Shown here: in pieces, positions 52,808 through 58,547 of the stretch
How the letters are laid out: each line of letters opens with the position of its first letter
Numbering within the stretch: the stretch's first letter is position 1
Source: Candidatus Melainabacteria bacterium 17Bon1m
GTDB lineage: Bacteria > Cyanobacteriota > Vampirovibrionia > Obscuribacterales > Obscuribacteraceae
Direction of reading: 5' to 3'
Length of the DNA: 64,000 nucleotides
NCBI GenBank assembly: GCA_032128875.1
Contig: JAVLKG010000006.1
Span: 128,001 to 192,000, forward strand
Program-made: the position numbers and the translations under genes
The notes under the pieces: generated by a model
The model's input: only the letters and a program-made list of their open reading frames with translations
What the model was told of the DNA's origin: nothing
Database searches by the model: none

Positions 52808-53647
52808 ATGGCAAAGTCTGGAAATATTGAACGGCTGGACACGATCGTCGTTGAGAGGGGACTCTTTGCGACGAAAGAATCCGCACGCACTGCAATCATG
52901 GAAGGCTTGGTACTTGTTGATGGACAACCGGTAACCAAGCCAGGTCACTCTGTGAAATCTCAGTCCAAGGTGGAGCTTTCACCGTCTTACCAGCCCCCTA
53001 AGTTCGTCAGCAGGGGTGGGTTGAAGTTGGAAAAGGCACTCGATGAGTTTCATATCGATCTTTCAAATAGAGTGTGTCTCGACATCGGCGCTTCTACCGG
53101 TGGTTTTACCGACTGCATGTTGAAGCGTGGCGCCAGTTATGTCTATGCTGTTGATGTCGGCTATGGGCAACTGGACTGGACTCTGAGGCAGAATGAGCGA
53201 GTCAAAGTGATGGAACGCGTCAATGCGCGCAATTTGACTCCAGCTATGTTGTATTCAGAAAGCGAAACAGCTGCGCGAGTTGATTTCGCGAGCATGGATG
53301 TTTCTTTCATATCAGCATTTAAAGTTTTGCCGTCGGTGCTGCAGTCGATGGACGAGAAGAAATCTGAGTTCGTCATTCTGGTCAAGCCGCAATTCGAAGC
53401 TGGGCGGCAGTTTGTAGGGCACGGAGGCGTTGTGCGTGACCCGGCTGTTCACCTTGATGTTTTGAATATGGCGAAAGAAAAGTCTACGGAATTAGGATTG
53501 CATGCTCAATCTGTTAGTTACTCTCCAATAAAAGGTCCAAAAGGAAACATCGAATTCTTGCTCCATCTTTCGCGTGAAAAAACGGCTGCAGATGCGGATC
53601 TTGCAGCCGTTGTTCAAAGAGCGCACTCCGAACTTACTGTTTTGTAA
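52808..53647 (+). CDS. tlyA: TlyA-family rRNA 2'-O-methyltransferase
   Basis: S4 domain RLD..., FVSRGGLKLEKAL, LDIGASTGGFTD, LVKPQFEAG, GPKGNIEFL. Confidence 0.96.
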   Translation: MAKSGNIERLDTIVVERGLFATKESARTAIMEGLVLVDGQPVTKPGHSVKSQSKVELSPSYQPPKFVSRGGLKLEKALDEFHIDLSNRVCLDIGASTGGFTDCMLKRGASYVYAVDVGYGQLDWTLRQNERVKVMERVNARNLTPAMLYSESETAARVDFASMDVSFISAFKVLPSVLQSMDEKKSEFVILVKPQFEAGRQFVGHGGVVRDPAVHLDVLNMAKEKSTELGLHAQSVSYSPIKGPKGNIEFLLHLSREKTAADADLAAVVQRAHSELTVL

Positions 53648-53685
53648 GGGTGCCGGGTGTGCCTCCCCTCCAGAACGAGAGTGAG

Positions 53686-54339
53686 CTACTGTTTTGTCAC
53701 ATCACGTTTGGCGGTGGCAGAAATCGTGACAATGACTGTATCTGCTAGCTTTTGGAAAACCACTTCCGGTCGCTTGATTTGGTGATCTTTGAACGGAACG
53801 TTGAATGTGCTCTTGATCTGAATCAGATCGCAGTCTTCAAACTTGCTTTTGGTGGTTTCGCAGTTCTTGTAGAAGGTCAGATCGACAGGCACTGTCTTTT
53901 TCACAGTGACTCCGTGCAGTGCGAAGTCTCCGGTCGCCTTGATAGTGACCTTTTGCTTGTCTTTCAAAACACCCGTCACGCCTGGCTGCGACTTGACTGT
54001 AAAGGTCGCTTTGGGAAATTTTTTGGTCTCCAGAAAATTGTCGCGCATGTGCTCGTTGCGCAGCGGGATTCCAGTGTCAATCGATGCGAGGTCAACGTCG
54101 AATGTCGCGGTGAATGGCTTGGAAAGATCCATTGATTCGTCGACGCTGATTTTGCCTTTTACTGCGCTTGTTTTGCCAACGATAAGCTCAATAGGAGCGT
54201 CGGACGTAAAGCTAATGGAGTCGCGCTTTTTCTCATCGTCGACAACAAAATTCAATTGCTTTGCATTGACTGATGTCGAAGCTACGCTCAGTGCGATTCC
54301 TGTCGCTGCGATGGCAGCGAAAAATACCTTGTTTTGCAT
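53686..54339 (-). CDS. YceI-family periplasmic polyisoprenoid-binding protein
   Basis: Signal peptide; VDLASIDTGIPLRNEHMR..FLETKKFPKATF, GDFALHGVTVK. Confidence 0.92.
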   Translation of the reverse strand: MQNKVFFAAIAATGIALSVASTSVNAKQLNFVVDDEKKRDSISFTSDAPIELIVGKTSAVKGKISVDESMDLSKPFTATFDVDLASIDTGIPLRNEHMRDNFLETKKFPKATFTVKSQPGVTGVLKDKQKVTIKATGDFALHGVTVKKTVPVDLTFYKNCETTKSKFEDCDLIQIKSTFNVPFKDHQIKRPEVVFQKLADTVIVTISATAKRDVTKQ

Positions 54340-54342
54340 GAT

Positions 54343-55149
54343 TTATTTACCCACTTTTCTGTCGCCCACAAACAAATTGATTTCATGGAATTGTTCGATC
54401 AATTCAATCAAGTCAGTCACTGCTGACTGGGGATTGCGCTCAGGATTCAGTTCTACACAGCGTTTTGCTAGTTGTCCATACGAGCTGACATCCGCTTCGG
54501 AAAGAAGAACCTGTGCATTGTCATCAAGTTCTACGATTCGTACACGGTGAGAAAACGGATCGCGATACATTGCAACGTGCGATTTTTCCGGCGCAAATTT
54601 TTTGCGGCTGCCTTTTCCCTCGTCAAGAAGGTCGACAATCTTTTGAATTGGATACTTATAAGTTTTTACTGCCAGAGTTGGATTCAAGACTGGACCAAGC
54701 GATACAAACGCTTCCGGATCGCTAAGCGGAGTCCTTTCAGTGACACTAACTGTAGTATCAACTTCAAGAAGCTCCATTTCCAGCCATTCGTAGTCGGCAA
54801 GCTCTGCAAGGTATGGACGCTTTTCTAGAAGGTCTGCGCAGTGCTCTCTTATGAATTGTGGAAACCGTCTTGCTGAGCTGTTTAAATGAAAGTGATCGGG
54901 TGGAAAAACGCTTACATATTTCTTGACCAGCTTTTCCCAACTGTTGCCCAGGAGCTCGGCGCAATATGGATAAATTGATGTCAGAACATCCTCATGTCCA
55001 TAGCCAATCAAGCGAGCGTAAAGCCGCGCACCATCAGCATCAAATTGATCTGATTCCAAAAGACAGCTAAGTGACTGAGCACTTTCGATCGGTTGTCTTT
55101 GCATCCAAACGGAGGTCAGTGTCTTTTCAATTTCATGCAGAGAGGACAC
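54343..55149 (-). CDS. DUF2063/HvfC/BufC-type MNIO partner protein
   Basis: LYARLI...LTSIYP...FPQFI...PYLAELADYEWLE; overlaps the DUF692 gene by 17 nt. Confidence 0.88.
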   Translation of the reverse strand: MSSLHEIEKTLTSVWMQRQPIESAQSLSCLLESDQFDADGARLYARLIGYGHEDVLTSIYPYCAELLGNSWEKLVKKYVSVFPPDHFHLNSSARRFPQFIREHCADLLEKRPYLAELADYEWLEMELLEVDTTVSVTERTPLSDPEAFVSLGPVLNPTLAVKTYKYPIQKIVDLLDEGKGSRKKFAPEKSHVAMYRDPFSHRVRIVELDDNAQVLLSEADVSSYGQLAKRCVELNPERNPQSAVTDLIELIEQFHEINLFVGDRKVGK

Positions 55150-56098
55150 GAGCGTGTTTTACCTCCGCCAAATCTCTATGACCTGCAGGTGCCGCTTTTC
55201 TATCAAAGTGTTTTGGAGCTGAAGCTGCTTTTGGAGGCATTCCTGATCTCCGCACTTGAGCTGCGGCGTCACTGATTGCGCGGATTCGGTCCACTTCCAT
55301 AAGTATTTCCTCGAATTCGGGGAAATTTTGATCGCGCTCCAGCATTACGCCTTTTGCTTCCACTCTTTCCAGTACGTATTGGAGTAGTTCGAACACCGGT
55401 TCAACAACAGCAGAACCGTGCGTATCAATTACATATTCGCTGCCCTGCTTGTGACCGGCAACGTGAATCTGAACGGTTCTTTCCAGCGGGATTTGATCTA
55501 AATATTGATATGGATCAAAGCCGTGATTGAGGCTGTTTACATAAACATTGTTGACGTCTAAAAGCAGCCCGCAATCTGCTTTTTCAGCGACTTCTGCAAG
55601 AAATTGCGAGTCATTCATCTCGCAACCGGGGACGTTCATGTAATAGGAAATGTTTTCGAGAAGAAACGGTCTGCCGATCGTTTCCTGCACTCGCTTTACC
55701 TTCTCAGCGATCAATTTGATCGCTTCTTTAGAGCGGGGCAGCGGCAACAAGTCGTGCATGTAAATGCCGTCGCAGCTCGTGAAGCAGAGATGATCGCTGA
55801 ACCAAGGTGCATCAATGAGGTCGAGCAATTTTTTCAGTTTGCTCAAATACTCACTGTTGAGGTCATCTGTGCTTCCGATAGATAGATTGATACCATGCGT
55901 GACTAGAGGGAACTTGTTACGCGCCGACTCGAGTCGTTCGCGGCAAGCCCCCCCTAGTCCCATATAGTTTTCTGGCACCAACTCTAGCCAGTCGATCCGG
56001 CTTTTGCTCTCCAGTGTTTGTGTTGCTAACTCTCTGCGCAAACCCAACCCAATACCAAGATTGGGAAGACGTTTTTTCGTGTCGAGAAAGTCAGGCAT
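55133..56098 (-). CDS. DUF692 multinuclear non-heme iron-dependent oxidase (MNIO; HvfB/BufB/MbnB family)
   Basis: GIGLGLR, WLELVPENY, HGINLSIG, WFSDHLCF, LLPLP, LLENISYY, LLLDVNNVYVN, QIHVAGH, IDTHG, LERD. Confidence 0.96.
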   Translation of the reverse strand: MPDFLDTKKRLPNLGIGLGLRRELATQTLESKSRIDWLELVPENYMGLGGACRERLESARNKFPLVTHGINLSIGSTDDLNSEYLSKLKKLLDLIDAPWFSDHLCFTSCDGIYMHDLLPLPRSKEAIKLIAEKVKRVQETIGRPFLLENISYYMNVPGCEMNDSQFLAEVAEKADCGLLLDVNNVYVNSLNHGFDPYQYLDQIPLERTVQIHVAGHKQGSEYVIDTHGSAVVEPVFELLQYVLERVEAKGVMLERDQNFPEFEEILMEVDRIRAISDAAAQVRRSGMPPKAASAPKHFDRKAAPAGHRDLAEVKHARVLSA

Positions 56099-56146
56099 AA
56101 CATCTCAGGCGAACTAAAGCTGAATCCGACTGGCAAAAAGCTGATG

Positions 56147-56181
56147 AAAAAATAGCGCCACACCAATAGTGAGCGCTATTT
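56147..56181 (-). terminator. Hairpin with U-tract between precursor gene and MNIO gene
   Basis: AAATAGCGC-TCAC-N7-GTG-GCGCTATTT-TTT on - strand, 1 nt after the precursor stop. Confidence 0.7.
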
Positions 56182-56182
56182 C

Positions 56183-56488
56183 TTACTTGGATTCTTTGCT
56201 TTTGCAGGCGCTTTCTTTGCCTTTGCAAGAGCTTTCTTTGCCTTTGCAGGATCCTTCTTTTCCTTTGCAGGATCCTTCTTTGCCTTTTTCTTTGCTCTTG
56301 CATGAGCTTTCTTTGCCCTTGCAGGAAGCTTCAGAGCCTTTTGCTTTCTTGGTGCTCTTTTCGGTCTTCTTTTCTACCTTTGTTGTTTCTTTGGTTTCGG
56401 TAGTTGTTTCATCAGCAGCGCGTGCGGCGCCGTTGAGGGTAAGTCCGAGTACTGCCAAGAGAGCAGCGGCCAATTGTGTTTTTTGCAT
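56183..56488 (-). CDS. Putative RiPP precursor 1: signal peptide plus six E-x-(S/A)-C-K-(G/S)-K repeats
   Basis: AARA-A signal peptidase site; EASCKGK, ESSCKSK, EGSCKGK x2, ESSCKGK, ESACKSK; GGAGG RBS; upstream of DUF692. Confidence 0.88.
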   Translation of the reverse strand: MQKTQLAAALLAVLGLTLNGAARAADETTTETKETTKVEKKTEKSTKKAKGSEASCKGKESSCKSKEKGKEGSCKGKEGSCKGKESSCKGKESACKSKESK

Positions 56489-56583
56489 GTTGTCCTCCCT
56501 GAACGTTTAGACAATGAACCCCAAGGGAGACAATCTCCCTATTCCTGGGCACATGTGGGTCATCCTAGGTCACTGTGATTAAC

Positions 56584-56608
56584 AAAAAGCCATTTGTATG
56601 TAATGGCT
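56584..56608 (-). terminator. Weak terminator-like hairpin between the two precursor genes
   Basis: AGCCATT-N7-AATGGCT-TTTT on - strand. Confidence 0.5.
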
Positions 56609-56674
56609 GTGTAAAATCGCAAACCCACTGAATACTACGGCTTAGCGGGTTTTAAGATTCTTCACAAAAGTGAG

Positions 56675-57040
56675 CTATTTCTTTTCGACCTTGGTCTCTT
56701 TCTTTACTTCGGTTTTGGAATGAGCTTCAGATGCTGCTTTTGCACCTTTCTCATCGGTTCCGCAAGAGCCTTTGCCGCATGCTGATTCTTTTCCAGCCTT
56801 CTTGGTGGTCTTTTCAGTAGCTTTTACAGTGGTTTTTGGAGCTTTCCCGTCTTCCTTGGTCGTGGTTTTTTCTTTGACTTTGGTAGTTACGGAATCCTTT
56901 TTATCGGACACTGTAGTGGTTTTGTCGGTAGTAGTCGCGCTCTTTGTTACTTCCTTATCCGCTGCCATTGCGGCGTTGGCGGTAACAAGACTGACTACCG
57001 CGGCAATGAGAGCCGCGTCGAATCTAGATTTTGCTTCCAT
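56675..57040 (-). CDS. Putative RiPP precursor 2: signal peptide, Lys/Thr-rich, KESACGKGSCG core
   Basis: AMA-A signal site; shares KESAC and KETxKVEKK-like segments with precursor 1; ORF open from 57100. Confidence 0.8.
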   Translation of the reverse strand: MEAKSRFDAALIAAVVSLVTANAAMAADKEVTKSATTTDKTTTVSDKKDSVTTKVKEKTTTKEDGKAPKTTVKATEKTTKKAGKESACGKGSCGTDEKGAKAASEAHSKTEVKKETKVEKK

Positions 57041-57235
57041 TTTTTTTGAACATCCTTCAAATGAGGGGTGTAATCTCGAACAAGAAATATTTACCAACAA
57101 GCTTGGGTTGAGTTCAACGGCATATTATTGACCGTTAAGAAATTCGCGCAAATTCGTTTGCTCAAGTCGCGGAATACATATATATAGGTACGAAACCACC
57201 GCGGTTGTCATTGGGGGGCTGGGAGAGAAGAGCTG

Positions 57236-58001: not shown

Positions 58002-58547
58002 TTAGCCCATACCGCCTTCAGCTGCCGGAGCGGCTACTTTCTTTTTGGCGGTTGCTTTTTTCTTCTTTGCTGGTGCCTTTTTAGCGCCGGCTTTCTTTGC
58101 TGGGGCCTTTTTGGCTGCAGCTTTCTTGGCGGGTGCTTTCTTTGCTGCTGCTTTTTTCTTAGGAGCGGCTTTTTTGGCTGCAGCTTTTTTAGGAGCTGCT
58201 TTCTTTGCTGCTGCTTTCTTCTTAGGAGCGGCTTTCTTAGCTGCTTTCTTCGGAGCTGCTTTCTTAGCGGCTTTCTTAGGAGCAGCTTTCTTAGCAGTGG
58301 TCTTCTTAGCTGCAGCTTTCTTAGGAGCAGCCTTCTTCGCTGCTGCCTTCTTAGGAGCTGCTTTCTTAGCAGTAGTCTTCTTAGCTGCTTTCTTAGGAGC
58401 TGCTTTCTTAGCGGTTGCTTTCTTAGCGGTTCTCTTCTTAGCGGCTTTCTTCGGCTTAGCGGTTTCAGCGCCGGCTTCGTCGGCCATAGCTGCAGCTGGA
58501 TTTACTTTCTTAGCTGCTGCTTTTCTCTTCTTAGGTTTAGCTGCCAT
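58002..58547 (-). CDS. Histone H1-like Lys/Ala/Pro-rich nucleoid protein
   Basis: Many AKKAAPKK repeats; GGAGGAG RBS. Confidence 0.88.
   Translation of the reverse strand: MAAKPKKRKAAAKKVNPAAAMADEAGAETAKPKKAAKKRTAKKATAKKAAPKKAAKKTTAKKAAPKKAAAKKAAPKKAAAKKTTAKKAAPKKAAKKAAPKKAAKKAAPKKKAAAKKAAPKKAAAKKAAPKKKAAAKKAPAKKAAAKKAPAKKAGAKKAPAKKKKATAKKKVAAPAAEGGMG

Follow-up and report, generated by a model that had tools for sequence, protein, structure and literature searches.

Organization of the locus

There are five open reading frames in the same orientation on the minus strand of the window, the whole 64-kb stretch of DNA that we analysed, and all were found at the coordinates given by the initial annotation. 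The first two are predicted to encode small proteins, precursor 2 (Pre2; 56675-57040, 121 aa) and precursor 1 (Pre1; 56183-56488, 101 aa). These are followed by genes for a MNIO (DUF692) maturase (55133-56098, 321 aa, PF05114), a DUF2063-type partner that is PME type 1-like (54343-55149, 268 aa, PF09836), and a divergent YceI-family protein predicted to be periplasmic (53686-54339, 217 aa, PF04264). The order precursor 2, precursor 1, DUF692, DUF2063-type, YceI claimed earlier agrees with these coordinates, and so does the tight spacing of the last three genes: the MNIO and DUF2063 genes share 17 nt (55133-55149) and the gap between the DUF2063 and YceI genes is 3 nt. When searched with the Pfam models PF05114, PF09836 and PF04264, as the initial annotation had proposed, each gene product exceeded the cut-off of its respective family.

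The YceI gene is the final gene of the operon and beyond it lies a convergent tlyA-like methyltransferase gene. Neighboring genes are housekeeping genes, and no copper, metal-resistance or sigma/anti-sigma genes were found within the 64-kb window. The DNA belongs to a Candidatus Obscuribacterales (Melainabacteria) metagenome-assembled genome (MAG), which bears out the claim of a lineage other than those studied. The host is an uncultured, non-photosynthetic relative of cyanobacteria.

The maturase and its partner resemble HvfBC and BufBC

The MNIO matched PF05114 (MbnB_TglH_ChrH) at E 7e-102 with 340.6 bits (cut-off 25) over model positions 1-261 of 263; a search of the window's genome with this model gave two matches. 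Against the NCBIfam BufB model (NF050167) it scored 312.8 bits, which meets the cut-off of 310 marginally, by 2.8 bits, and against the HvfB model (NF003818) it scored 305 bits, below the cut-off of 360. All 27 orthologues scanned matched both models, the best HvfB match having an E of 1.4e-96. Judged by these scores, the enzyme lies between the HvfB and BufB models.

Alignment of the 27 orthologues showed that the motifs THG, SDH, LEN, DVNN, HVAGH, DTH and ERD are invariant and identical in MbnB and in the structure 3BWW, a PDB entry that matches the MNIO at E 9.8e-61. Invariant residues include H68, D102-H103, E148, D181, N184, H212, D225, H227, E254 and D256, a His/Asp/Glu/Asn set that we take to be the iron ligands. 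An Arg pair (R21, R22) is also invariant among orthologues. The catalytic Asp is followed by Gln257, giving an ERDQ motif, and Gln is found here in 60 of 61 orthologues; the corresponding residue is Phe in 3BWW and Asp in a paralogue with a different precursor. The window holds a natural enzyme with a third residue type at a published selectivity site. No Gln-bearing enzyme of this kind is known to have been assayed.

MNIO-PME1 pairs are described as placing 5-thiooxazoles on DUF2282, Lys-Cys (EGKCG) and Cys-Lys precursors (PMC13097082). In captophorin MNIOs a conserved pair of Arg residues meets position 1 of the substrate motif, a Glu, and the context accepted around Cys depends on the residue that follows the catalytic Asp, this residue being Phe in Lys-Cys enzymes and Asp in Cys-Lys enzymes (PMC13097082). 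FonBC left substrates unprocessed when Cys was followed by a charged residue, as in NACKG (PMC13097082), so a C-K context would need a differently tuned enzyme.

The partner scored 31.7 bits against PF09836 (DUF2063; cut-off 27.2) and 72.2 bits against NCBIfam HvfC over residues 35-260, below the cut-off of 142. Its AlphaFold2 model (pLDDT 84.5) has a predicted two-domain fold like that of NGO1945 (3DEE), which was the best Foldseek match in the PDB (E 7e-7, TM 0.70 on the target) and was followed by TglI chains. PqqD/RRE folds appeared among the Foldseek matches at E 0.34-0.8 only and, because these values are above 0.1, were not counted as matches. Pfam scores, NCBIfam scores and the fold match of the partner agree on a DUF692 plus DUF2063 pair of the HvfBC/BufBC kind, as the initial annotation had it.

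Two putative secreted precursors with distinct cysteine motifs

The Pre1 gene is preceded by a ribosome-binding site, GGAGGA, and is predicted to encode a Sec-type signal (…NGAARA/ADET, the slash marking the cleavage site), a Lys/Glu/Thr-rich linker and then six GKE[GS]SCK heptads that hold all 6 Cys. The context of every Cys is E-[GSA]-S/A-C-K, in which Glu occupies position -3 and Lys position +1. At the DNA level the heptads correspond to an array of a 21-nt (7-codon) tandem repeat on the minus strand (56192..56331), for which Tandem Repeats Finder reported 4.6 copies with 89% matches at 56192-56287, running on to 56331. AlphaFold2 gave pLDDT <50 over most of the core, which is predicted to be disordered.

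Pre2 was taken to start at the ATG at 57040; translation could also begin at an ATG in the same frame, 12 nt upstream, or at a TTG at 57100. The protein consists of a Sec-type signal (…ANAAMA/ADKE), a Thr/Lys-rich linker and one conserved unit, SACGKGSCGTDEKGAKAA, that carries its only 2 Cys, both in SACGKGSCG. The signals of Pre1, Pre2 and YceI were read from the sequence by the -3/-1 rule, and each N-terminus has a basic n-region, a hydrophobic stretch and an AxA-type site (ARA/AD, AMA/AD and VNA/KQ, respectively).

Both genes are single copy in the genome. Pfam gave no match to either protein at E<=0.01, and among NCBIfam matches up to E<=10 none exceeded the cut-off of its family; the sole NCBIfam match at E<=0.001 was to CopL_fam, with 20.2 bits against a cut-off of 40, and lay on low-complexity sequence. 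The EGKCG motif of Buf_EGKCG/oxazolin precursors is present in neither. Relatives of Pre1 in the protein database formed 87 protein clusters and those of Pre2 amounted to 6 proteins. Among Pre1 relatives the number of Cys ranges from 2 to 8 and the motif itself stays fixed. GKE[GS]SCK heptads were not found in the supplementary data of two published MNIO surveys, in line with the proposal that the system has a core motif of its own. Multiple Cys-Lys pairs in a Sec-signal peptide encoded before a MNIO define the Cys-Lys captophorin group, and in Pre1 6 of 6 Cys precede Lys.

The proposal of two substrates is strengthened by the existence of a second conserved precursor type: an alignment of 16 Pre2 homologues showed one invariant CG[KE]GSCGTDEKGA unit, with C88, G89, G91, C93, G94, D96, G99, A100, A102 and A103 invariant. 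The Pre2 gene is always upstream of the Pre1 gene and on the same strand in loci that have it, and in three single proteins (P0076, P0082 and L115) the CGKGSCG unit is fused to CK repeats. The invariant motif, fixed place and fusions argue that Pre2 belongs to the pathway.

It is possible, though we hold it to be the less probable course, that Pre1 alone is modified and that the C-x4-C of Pre2 forms a disulfide, its CGxGSCGTDEKGAxAA unit being a recognition or structural element split off from the N-terminal part of fused precursors. C38/C43 of HvfA, an N-terminal C-x4-C pair, form a disulfide, are unmodified and affect the completeness of processing (PMC11252979), so Pre2, with like spacing, may be no substrate. 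In the fused homologues P0076, P0082 and L115 the CGKGSCG unit is likewise N-terminal to the CK repeats, and Pre2 conservation reaches 10 residues beyond the second Cys (GTDEKGAKAA), resembling a protein-contact surface more than a bare metal site. By contrast, the C-G-x-G-x-C-G spacing equals that of a modified EGKCGEGKCG unit exactly, Glu stands at -3 of the first Pre2 Cys, and the unit is doubled in two homologues (L029 and L037). Gly after both Cys is also the dyad that FonB prefers, and Dataset S2 includes EGSCG repeats among its types of precursor repeat (PMC13097082). We favor the reading in which Pre2, too, is a substrate.

The precursor and maturase genes are linked across the order

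The heptad motif was seen only in Obscuribacterales-type MAGs, at 80 loci. A MNIO gene lies within 4.5 kb in 61 of these, directly downstream and on the same strand in 60 of the 61, and the partner gene comes next after the MNIO wherever the contig continues. Looking from the enzyme, we found a Pre1-like ORF ahead of the MNIO in 20 of 20 loci from relatives, and 23 of 24 same-family genomes have the enzyme. The association of precursor and MNIO is far beyond chance.

These data bear on whether the small Lys-rich ORFs are substrates at all. They could be low-complexity secreted or surface proteins beside a MNIO that acts elsewhere, given that both are of low complexity and lack a curated family match, and that 19 of the 80 loci have a Pre1-like gene with no MNIO in the locus DNA examined. 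We regard this as very improbable, since all Cys are in repeats whose number varies while the motif is fixed, 60 of 61 loci have a Pre1-like ORF ahead of the MNIO, the Arg pair and Gln site of the enzyme vary together with the motif, and the operon has no other candidate substrate gene. Taking the ORFs as precursors, the locus brings together all captophorin-class gene types (MNIO, PME1 and a Cys-rich precursor; PMC13097082), in an arrangement kept in 60 of 61 loci.

Predicted hairpins flank the Pre1 gene

A terminator-like hairpin with a T-run lies downstream of the Pre2 gene (56588..56608, minus strand), recognized by a consensus scan and by folding; the region 56590-56680 folds at -22.2 kcal/mol (z -2.65). 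This pattern match suggests that Pre2 may be transcribable on its own. Between the Pre1 stop codon and the MNIO gene, folding predicted a GC-rich hairpin ending in U6 (56147..56184, minus strand; -27 kcal/mol, z -2.3) that recurs, altered in loop and stem, in 7 of 7 loci from the genus. In other clades a crude criterion picked out unrelated hairpins with a T-run, in 22 of 59 intergenic regions. The hairpin may be a leaky terminator giving a high precursor-to-enzyme ratio.

RNA libraries from three studies yielded short contigs covering Pre1, and those of one study also a contig covering Pre2. Three such contigs span Pre1, the hairpin and the start of the MNIO gene, and in one RNA-labelled run the entire region is inside a 24.7-kb contig. 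These contigs hint weakly at transcription of the cluster; they are no proof of it, as RNA libraries can contain DNA.

YceI takes the place of DoxX and accompanies Pre2

DoxX genes are frequent, although not universal, in bufferin/oxazolin gene clusters. There is none beside the cluster described here, and five DoxX matches occur elsewhere in the genome. As had been noted, the accessory gene is a different one, YceI. The operon YceI (signal …STSVNA/KQ) scored 76.9 bits against PF04264 (cut-off 23.7) and is divergent by comparison with a canonical YceI elsewhere in the genome, which scored 185.6 bits; the YceI proteins linked to the cluster constitute a subfamily that is well conserved. YceI was found in 18 of 61 MNIO-linked loci. 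In loci that lack it the operon runs up to the convergent tlyA-like gene; of 8 minus-strand ORFs scanned downstream, 7 were FtsJ+S4.

The Pre2 type was found in 16 of 16 testable loci with YceI versus 0 of 43 without it, and this strict co-occurrence is a testable lead to the role of the fourth gene in such operons. A bolder and rather doubtful proposal is that the CGxGSCGTDEKGAxAA peptide and the divergent periplasmic YceI are a dedicated pair, gained and lost together, with YceI as the peptide's receptor, carrier or redox partner. A single Gln-site MNIO would then serve both C-K heptads and C-G units, yielding a two-peptide periplasmic metal-handling module, and YceI might couple the peptide to the pool of isoprenoid quinones, by analogy with what is suspected of DoxX elsewhere.

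Proposed function and relation to known systems

The marks of the captophorin class are a 5-thiooxazole on Cys (-4 Da, ~305 nm) and copper binding (PMC13097082). We consider it likely that the locus is a captophorin/bufferin-class RiPP operon in which the MNIO and its partner make thiooxazoles from Cys of exported, metal-buffering peptides. From the observed gene content, order, coupling, conservation, motifs, and family and fold assignments we infer the chemistry, metal, export, attenuation and any role of YceI as follows. In the cytoplasm, the iron-dependent MNIO would form a complex with the DUF2063/RRE partner, the latter holding the precursor. The enzyme would oxidize the Cys of Pre1, at six E-G/S-S-C-K sites, to 5-thiooxazoles, each Cys losing 4 Da, and probably also the two Cys of Pre2 (CGKGSCG). 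After Sec export and cleavage by signal peptidase I, the mature peptides would be disordered Lys/Glu-rich metal buffers in the periplasm, likely binding one Cu(I) per pair of heterocycles, or about 3 for Pre1 and 1 for Pre2. The hairpin and U-run 3' of Pre1 would let precursor transcripts exceed enzyme transcripts. YceI, a presumed periplasmic lipocalin-like protein, would occupy the place of DoxX in described clusters and be tied to the Pre2 type.

The enzyme class could be right and the product or function another, such as a different Cys-derived modification, another metal or oxidative stress. The lack of copper genes in the 64-kb window fits such a reading, as does a specificity-site Gln that fits neither characterized group (PMC13097082), and MNIO clusters have been tied to other metals and MNIO chemistry is diverse (PMC12452194). 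We think it unlikely: model scores place the enzyme in the HvfB/BufB group, whose members described as tested in PMC13097082 all make 5-thiooxazoles, and the partner is PME type 1-like, the type that accompanies Sec-signal precursors of the bufferin kind (PMC12452194).

We compared this putative copper-binding system with those described. HvfABC of Haemophilus influenzae and FonABC of Fontimonas thermophila make oxazolin and fontiphorin, "Lys-Cys" EGKCG captophorins (PMC11252979; PMC13097082). They share with the locus a precursor that combines a Sec signal with short, repeated Cys motifs (Glu at -3, Gly at -2), a MNIO with a DUF2063/RRE partner, the order precursor-MNIO-partner and the conserved Arg pair, and the Pre2 spacing C-G-x-G-x-C-G is that of one EGKCGEGKCG unit. 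They differ in that Pre1 has EGSCK in 7-residue repeats rather than EGKCG in 5- or 17-residue units, with Ser for Lys before Cys and Lys for Gly after it; the cluster has Gln for Phe after the catalytic Asp and YceI for DoxX, falls below the HvfB (360) and HvfC (142) cut-offs, and is from Obscuribacterales whereas the others are from Pseudomonadota.

Bufferin 2, BufA2B2C2 of Caulobacter vibrioides, belongs to Buf_6/12Cys and the "Cys-Lys" group (PMC12452194; PMC13097082). Likenesses are Cys followed by Lys, the Sec signal, a MNIO above the BufB cut-off and, by analogy, the thiooxazoles and copper binding expected of the cluster's product. However, Cys-Lys enzymes are described with Asp after the catalytic Asp (PMC13097082) where Gln is found here, Buf1 and Buf2 have related structural models (PMC12452194) in contrast to the predicted disordered heptads of Pre1, and no NCBIfam precursor model matches Pre1 or Pre2. 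MbnABC shares the MNIO fold, metal-site motifs and a Cys-derived copper-binding heterocycle. It is distant (PDB search E 2e-14 to 4e-7; the window's MNIO scored 68 bits versus the MbnB cut-off of 325), its partner is of another kind, its precursor lacks a Sec signal and its chemistry is oxazolone-thioamide.

The initial annotation described a related system with its own motif, two substrates and another accessory gene. This stands at the genomic level, while the rank of novelty was overstated: a survey has already listed unclassified small Cys peptides with Sec signals by the hundreds, encoded ahead of MNIO genes (PMC12452194), and the locus is thus a variant within a known class and no new system. 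It has peptide motifs of its own and an unusual helper gene. The cluster carries the class into Vampirovibrionia, the sister group of cyanobacteria that does not photosynthesize, where it is chromosomally fixed beside tlyA across the order. Captophorins/bufferins are thought to be among the most widespread RiPP classes, and to our knowledge their biochemistry so far all comes from Pseudomonadota. The combination of a Gln enzyme, a hybrid motif (Glu-Gly as in EGKCG, Ser before and Lys after Cys) and a Cys-Gly Pre2 offers a test of how MNIOs choose cysteines.

A like arrangement is found in a paralogous cluster of the same genus (G011:C6, L115) that also has the order precursor, MNIO, DUF2063, YceI, with a YceI 46% identical to that of the window. 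Its MNIO is about 50% identical to the window's and has ERDD instead of ERDQ; a paralogue of this type was not found in the window's genome by the PF05114 search. L115, like P0076 and P0082, has a fused precursor with the CGKGSCG unit and C-K sites, encoded by one gene, not two.

A conserved five-gene MNIO operon

Five open reading frames lie head-to-tail on the minus strand of the window and encode, from upstream to downstream, precursor 2 (pre2; 56675-57040, 121 aa), precursor 1 (pre1; 56183-56488, 101 aa), an MNIO enzyme (55133-56098, 321 aa), a DUF2063 partner protein (54343-55149, 268 aa), and a YceI protein (53686-54339, 217 aa). The partner gene shares 17 nt with the MNIO gene and is separated from the YceI gene by 3 nt. 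The operon is flanked downstream by a convergent gene for a tlyA-like methyltransferase and upstream by a divergent gene for an alpha/beta hydrolase, which gives it the limits that the initial annotation had drawn. The families named there for the last three proteins were confirmed by a Pfam search, in which MNIO (340.6 bits), DUF2063 (31.7 bits), and YceI (76.9 bits) all scored above their cut-offs. No metal-related genes were found within the 64-kb window. The operon is real and well conserved. Its best interpretation is a thiooxazole peptide system of the captophorin/bufferin class, whose substrates are specific to the lineage, whose enzyme has a distinctive selectivity residue, and whose YceI gene is tied to the second precursor type. 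Elsewhere in the window, the minus strand encodes a 181-aa protein (58002-58547) made up almost entirely of AKKAA-type repeats that matches the chlamydial histone H1-like HC2 family below threshold (28.7 bits, cut-off 40).

The enzyme and its partner

Using NCBIfam models, we found that the MNIO matches BufB at 312.8 bits (cut-off 310) and HvfB at 305 bits (cut-off 360), with far lower scores for ApyH, MbnB, and ChrH. Each of the 27 scanned orthologues matched HvfB as well as BufB, at about 1e-95. The partner matched HvfC at 72 bits (cut-off 142); scores of the enzyme pair thus either marginally reached the family cut-offs or fell below them. The nearest solved structure to the MNIO is 3BWW from Histophilus somni (E 9.8e-61), and the His/Asp/Glu/Asn motifs common to the MNIO, 3BWW, and MbnB are invariant among orthologues. 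No PDB entry matched the partner by sequence at E<=0.1. Its predicted model (pLDDT 84.5) has its best fold matches in the DUF2063 protein NGO1945 (3DEE) and TglI, and isolated RRE folds (PqqD and a lasso-peptide B1 protein) appeared only above E 0.1, which is too weak to interpret.

The accessible text of PMC13097082 gives the name captophorins to the products of MNIO-PME1 clusters. It describes 5-thiooxazoles in three systems, with oxazolin revised to the same chemistry, and distinguishes three precursor groups, DUF2282, Lys-Cys (EGKCG), and Cys-Lys. In the enzymes described there, a pair of Arg residues close to the N-terminus meets the motif Glu, and the position that follows the catalytic Asp is occupied by Phe in enzymes of the Lys-Cys group and by Asp in those of the Cys-Lys group. 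Of 61 MNIOs of the present lineage, 59 have the Arg pair. Gln follows the Asp in 60 of the 61, and the aligned residue of 3BWW is Phe; this column was equated with FonB-Phe250 through alignment to 3BWW rather than to FonB itself. At the same site, the other Vampirovibrionia MNIOs compared here have either Phe, with no precursor found by our filter, or Ser, with an HKCG/EGKCG precursor, and a paralogue with a mixed precursor has Asp. A complex prediction for the MNIO, the partner, and mature pre2 reached at best 0.29, under the mark of 0.32, and speaks neither for nor against binding.

Other MNIO genes were seen in these genomes. The second MNIO of the window's own genome (PF05114, 98 bits) lies outside the window, at locus L002 (G000:C11:38743-42378), beside two ORFs, one of 339 aa that ends in AVDCGMG and a partial one that ends in GGCGMG. 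The literature that we found on MNIOs in this lineage is PMC13056109, which deals with another MNIO, from a MAG of the same genus. Its accessible part describes a 'mel' cluster from a Candidatus Melainabacteria MAG with MelH and with MelA1, which has a C-terminal CPACGMG motif; L002 resembles this cluster in having CGMG endings beside an MNIO. In small-genome Vampirovibrionia from other families of the class (G035, G040), MNIO loci L113 and L114 have HKCG/EGKCG-repeat precursors of the classical Lys-Cys type. Loci L116 and L117 have other C-K peptides with LEWD-type enzymes. Three same-genus genomes contain MNIO-like matches with 46-47% identity (G002:C197:12059-12931, G007:C37:801190-802014, and G003:C18:11826-12650) inside open frames of 816-827 aa, which may encode fused MNIO proteins.

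Precursor motifs

pre1 comprises a signal read from its sequence (…NGAARA/ADET), a Lys/Glu/Thr linker, and six copies of GKE[GS]SCK, a heptad beneath which the DNA forms a 21-nt tandem array. Each Cys is preceded by Glu at -3 and followed by Lys at +1. The core is predicted to be disordered, with an AlphaFold2 pLDDT below 50 and no fold to compare. In the ESM Atlas, the best feature score for pre1 was 0.86, under the meaningful level, with no structure entry. pre2 comprises a signal, also read from sequence (…ANAAMA/ADKE), a long Thr/Lys linker, and SACGKGSCGTDEKGAKAA, which holds its sole two Cys. Among 16 aligned pre2 homologues CG[KE]GSCGTD[EK]KGAxAA is nearly invariant and the remainder diverges freely. 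Neither precursor matches any curated family, and the window's genome has one copy of each.

The pre1 motif is a hybrid when compared with EGKCG: Glu-Gly is shared, whereas Ser replaces Lys and Lys replaces Gly. Besides the lack of metal-related genes in the window, the marginal or sub-threshold family scores of the enzyme pair, and the absence of curated-family matches for the precursors, two published observations count against the captophorin/bufferin-class reading. FonBC, the single enzyme tried on a comparable C-K substrate, left it unprocessed (PMC13097082, accessible text), and HvfA shows that a C-x4-C pair may form a disulfide instead of being modified (PMC11252979, accessible text).

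We searched the text of two supplementary files of PMC13097082 (5.16 million characters) and found no occurrence of CKGKEGSC, CKGKESSC, or CGKGSCG. CGEGSCG occurred 29 times, with one precursor labelled EGSCG x6. SCKGK occurred 331 times in these files, and the four passages inspected showed either unrelated proteins or short cases with two copies. Lineages represented only by MAGs may be absent from that data set by design, since it lists WP_ accessions. The searchable supplements of PMC12452194 contain no SCKGK, KEGSC, GKGSCG, Obscuribacter, or PF04264; Table S2 of that paper, which covers unclassified small ORFs, is incomplete in this form and may contain such entries. YceI and the present lineage are unmentioned in its main text, and a full-text search found no paper pairing YceI with DUF692 or YceI with DUF2063.

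Distribution of the cluster

A protein database search returned 87 relatives of pre1. The named ones are all hypothetical proteins, nearly all from Candidatus Obscuribacterales/Obscuribacter or 'Cyanobacteria bacterium' MAGs, and one relative is from a soil metagenome. Scanning one genome per GTDB species for [SA]CKGK[ED][GS]SC yielded 108 stretches and at least 80 confirmed loci. The window's genome spans 7.55 Mb over 35 contigs, with 93% completeness. Among the loci listed, 68 of 80 records name Melainabacteria, Obscuribacter*, or Cyanobacteria. The other 12 name another taxon or none, for example two 'Flavobacterium psychrophilum' and two 'Proteobacteria bacterium' MAGs. Nine of these 12 loci hold an MNIO, and in the MNIO tree all nine fall among the remaining loci; we take the 12 records as mislabelled bins. 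The four MAGs just named carry Obscuribacterales-type loci (L062, L086, L065, and L097) and are probably mislabelled or mixed bins; L086, L065, and L097 hold MNIOs that nest among Obscuribacterales enzymes.

Within the same family, 23 of 24 genomes have the enzyme, as do two of three from the order's second family; in the other families of the class, three of 13 have one. In relatives' loci, a pre1-like ORF preceded the MNIO and a DUF2063 gene followed it in all 20 cases. An MNIO is present at 61 of the 80 listed loci; at 60 it lies immediately downstream in the same orientation, and at L100 it is divergent. The remaining 19 have a pre1-like gene and no MNIO in the DNA examined, one being cut right after pre1. 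Loci with pre1-like heptad genes and no MNIO within about 4.5 kb (L038-L045, L047-L049, L051, L057, L059, L060, L062, and L092) look like extra, unlinked precursor copies because most share a genome with an MNIO-linked locus. Operons without YceI end at the same convergent tlyA-like gene, and FtsJ plus S4 domains were detected in seven of eight scanned minus-strand ORFs downstream of such operons. The shared end indicates that the locus is old and chromosomal in the order.

YceI accompanies precursor 2

The pre2 family is small, with six relatives in the protein database. Among the loci listed, YceI is present at 18 of 61 MNIO-linked loci. An upstream same-strand pre2-type ORF occurs at 16 of these 18, the remaining two being cut upstream, and at none of the 43 without YceI. 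YceI state changes at least six times on the MNIO tree, four changes being forced by well supported branches, and pre2 tracks YceI in all four independent contrasts (p = 0.125; four pairs cannot reach significance). Translated pre2 matches (tblastn) at L013 and L017 overlap the pre1 ORF and were rejected as low-complexity cross-matches.

The link between pre2-type precursors and YceI recurs in a paralogous cluster of a same-genus genome (L115, G011:C6:2800-7700). Here a fused precursor, a single protein with a CGKGSCG unit and C-K sites, is followed by an MNIO with ERDD, DUF2063, and a YceI protein 46% identical to that of the window. Such a paralogue was not found in the window's genome. The CGKGSCG and C-K fusion is also present in two database proteins.

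The cluster YceI proteins constitute a subfamily, divergent and well conserved, in which an additional loop carries a Cys pair. The window's genome encodes a second, canonical YceI away from the cluster (L108, G000:C3:207947-208453; 185.6 bits), and five DoxX genes, none near any MNIO.

Expression signals

A GC-rich hairpin with a terminal U6 (-27 kcal/mol) follows the pre1 stop codon. It is kept in all seven same-genus loci with changes in stem and loop, and in other clades an unrelated hairpin and T-run takes its place (22 of 59 by a crude rule). We read this hairpin as a leaky terminator, one that a consensus terminator scan misses owing to a bulge. A second terminator-like site follows pre2. 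A consensus promoter scan gave one site, within the partner gene, fewer than in shuffled sequences (mean 3.7), and we claim no promoter.

In RNA libraries from three studies (X17-X19), short contigs 95-100% alike cover pre1, and in one study a contig also covers pre2. Three contigs cross the hairpin into the start of the MNIO gene. These contigs are a weak hint of transcription because they show neither level nor strand and such libraries can contain DNA. Run X2 was set aside as expression evidence; it holds the entire 3.6 kb inside a 24.7-kb contig that may be DNA or source sample. Across 53600-57200, the X17-X19 contigs lie only on the precursor genes and on the opening ~150 nt of the MNIO gene, and one contig from the repeat region has a depth of 270.
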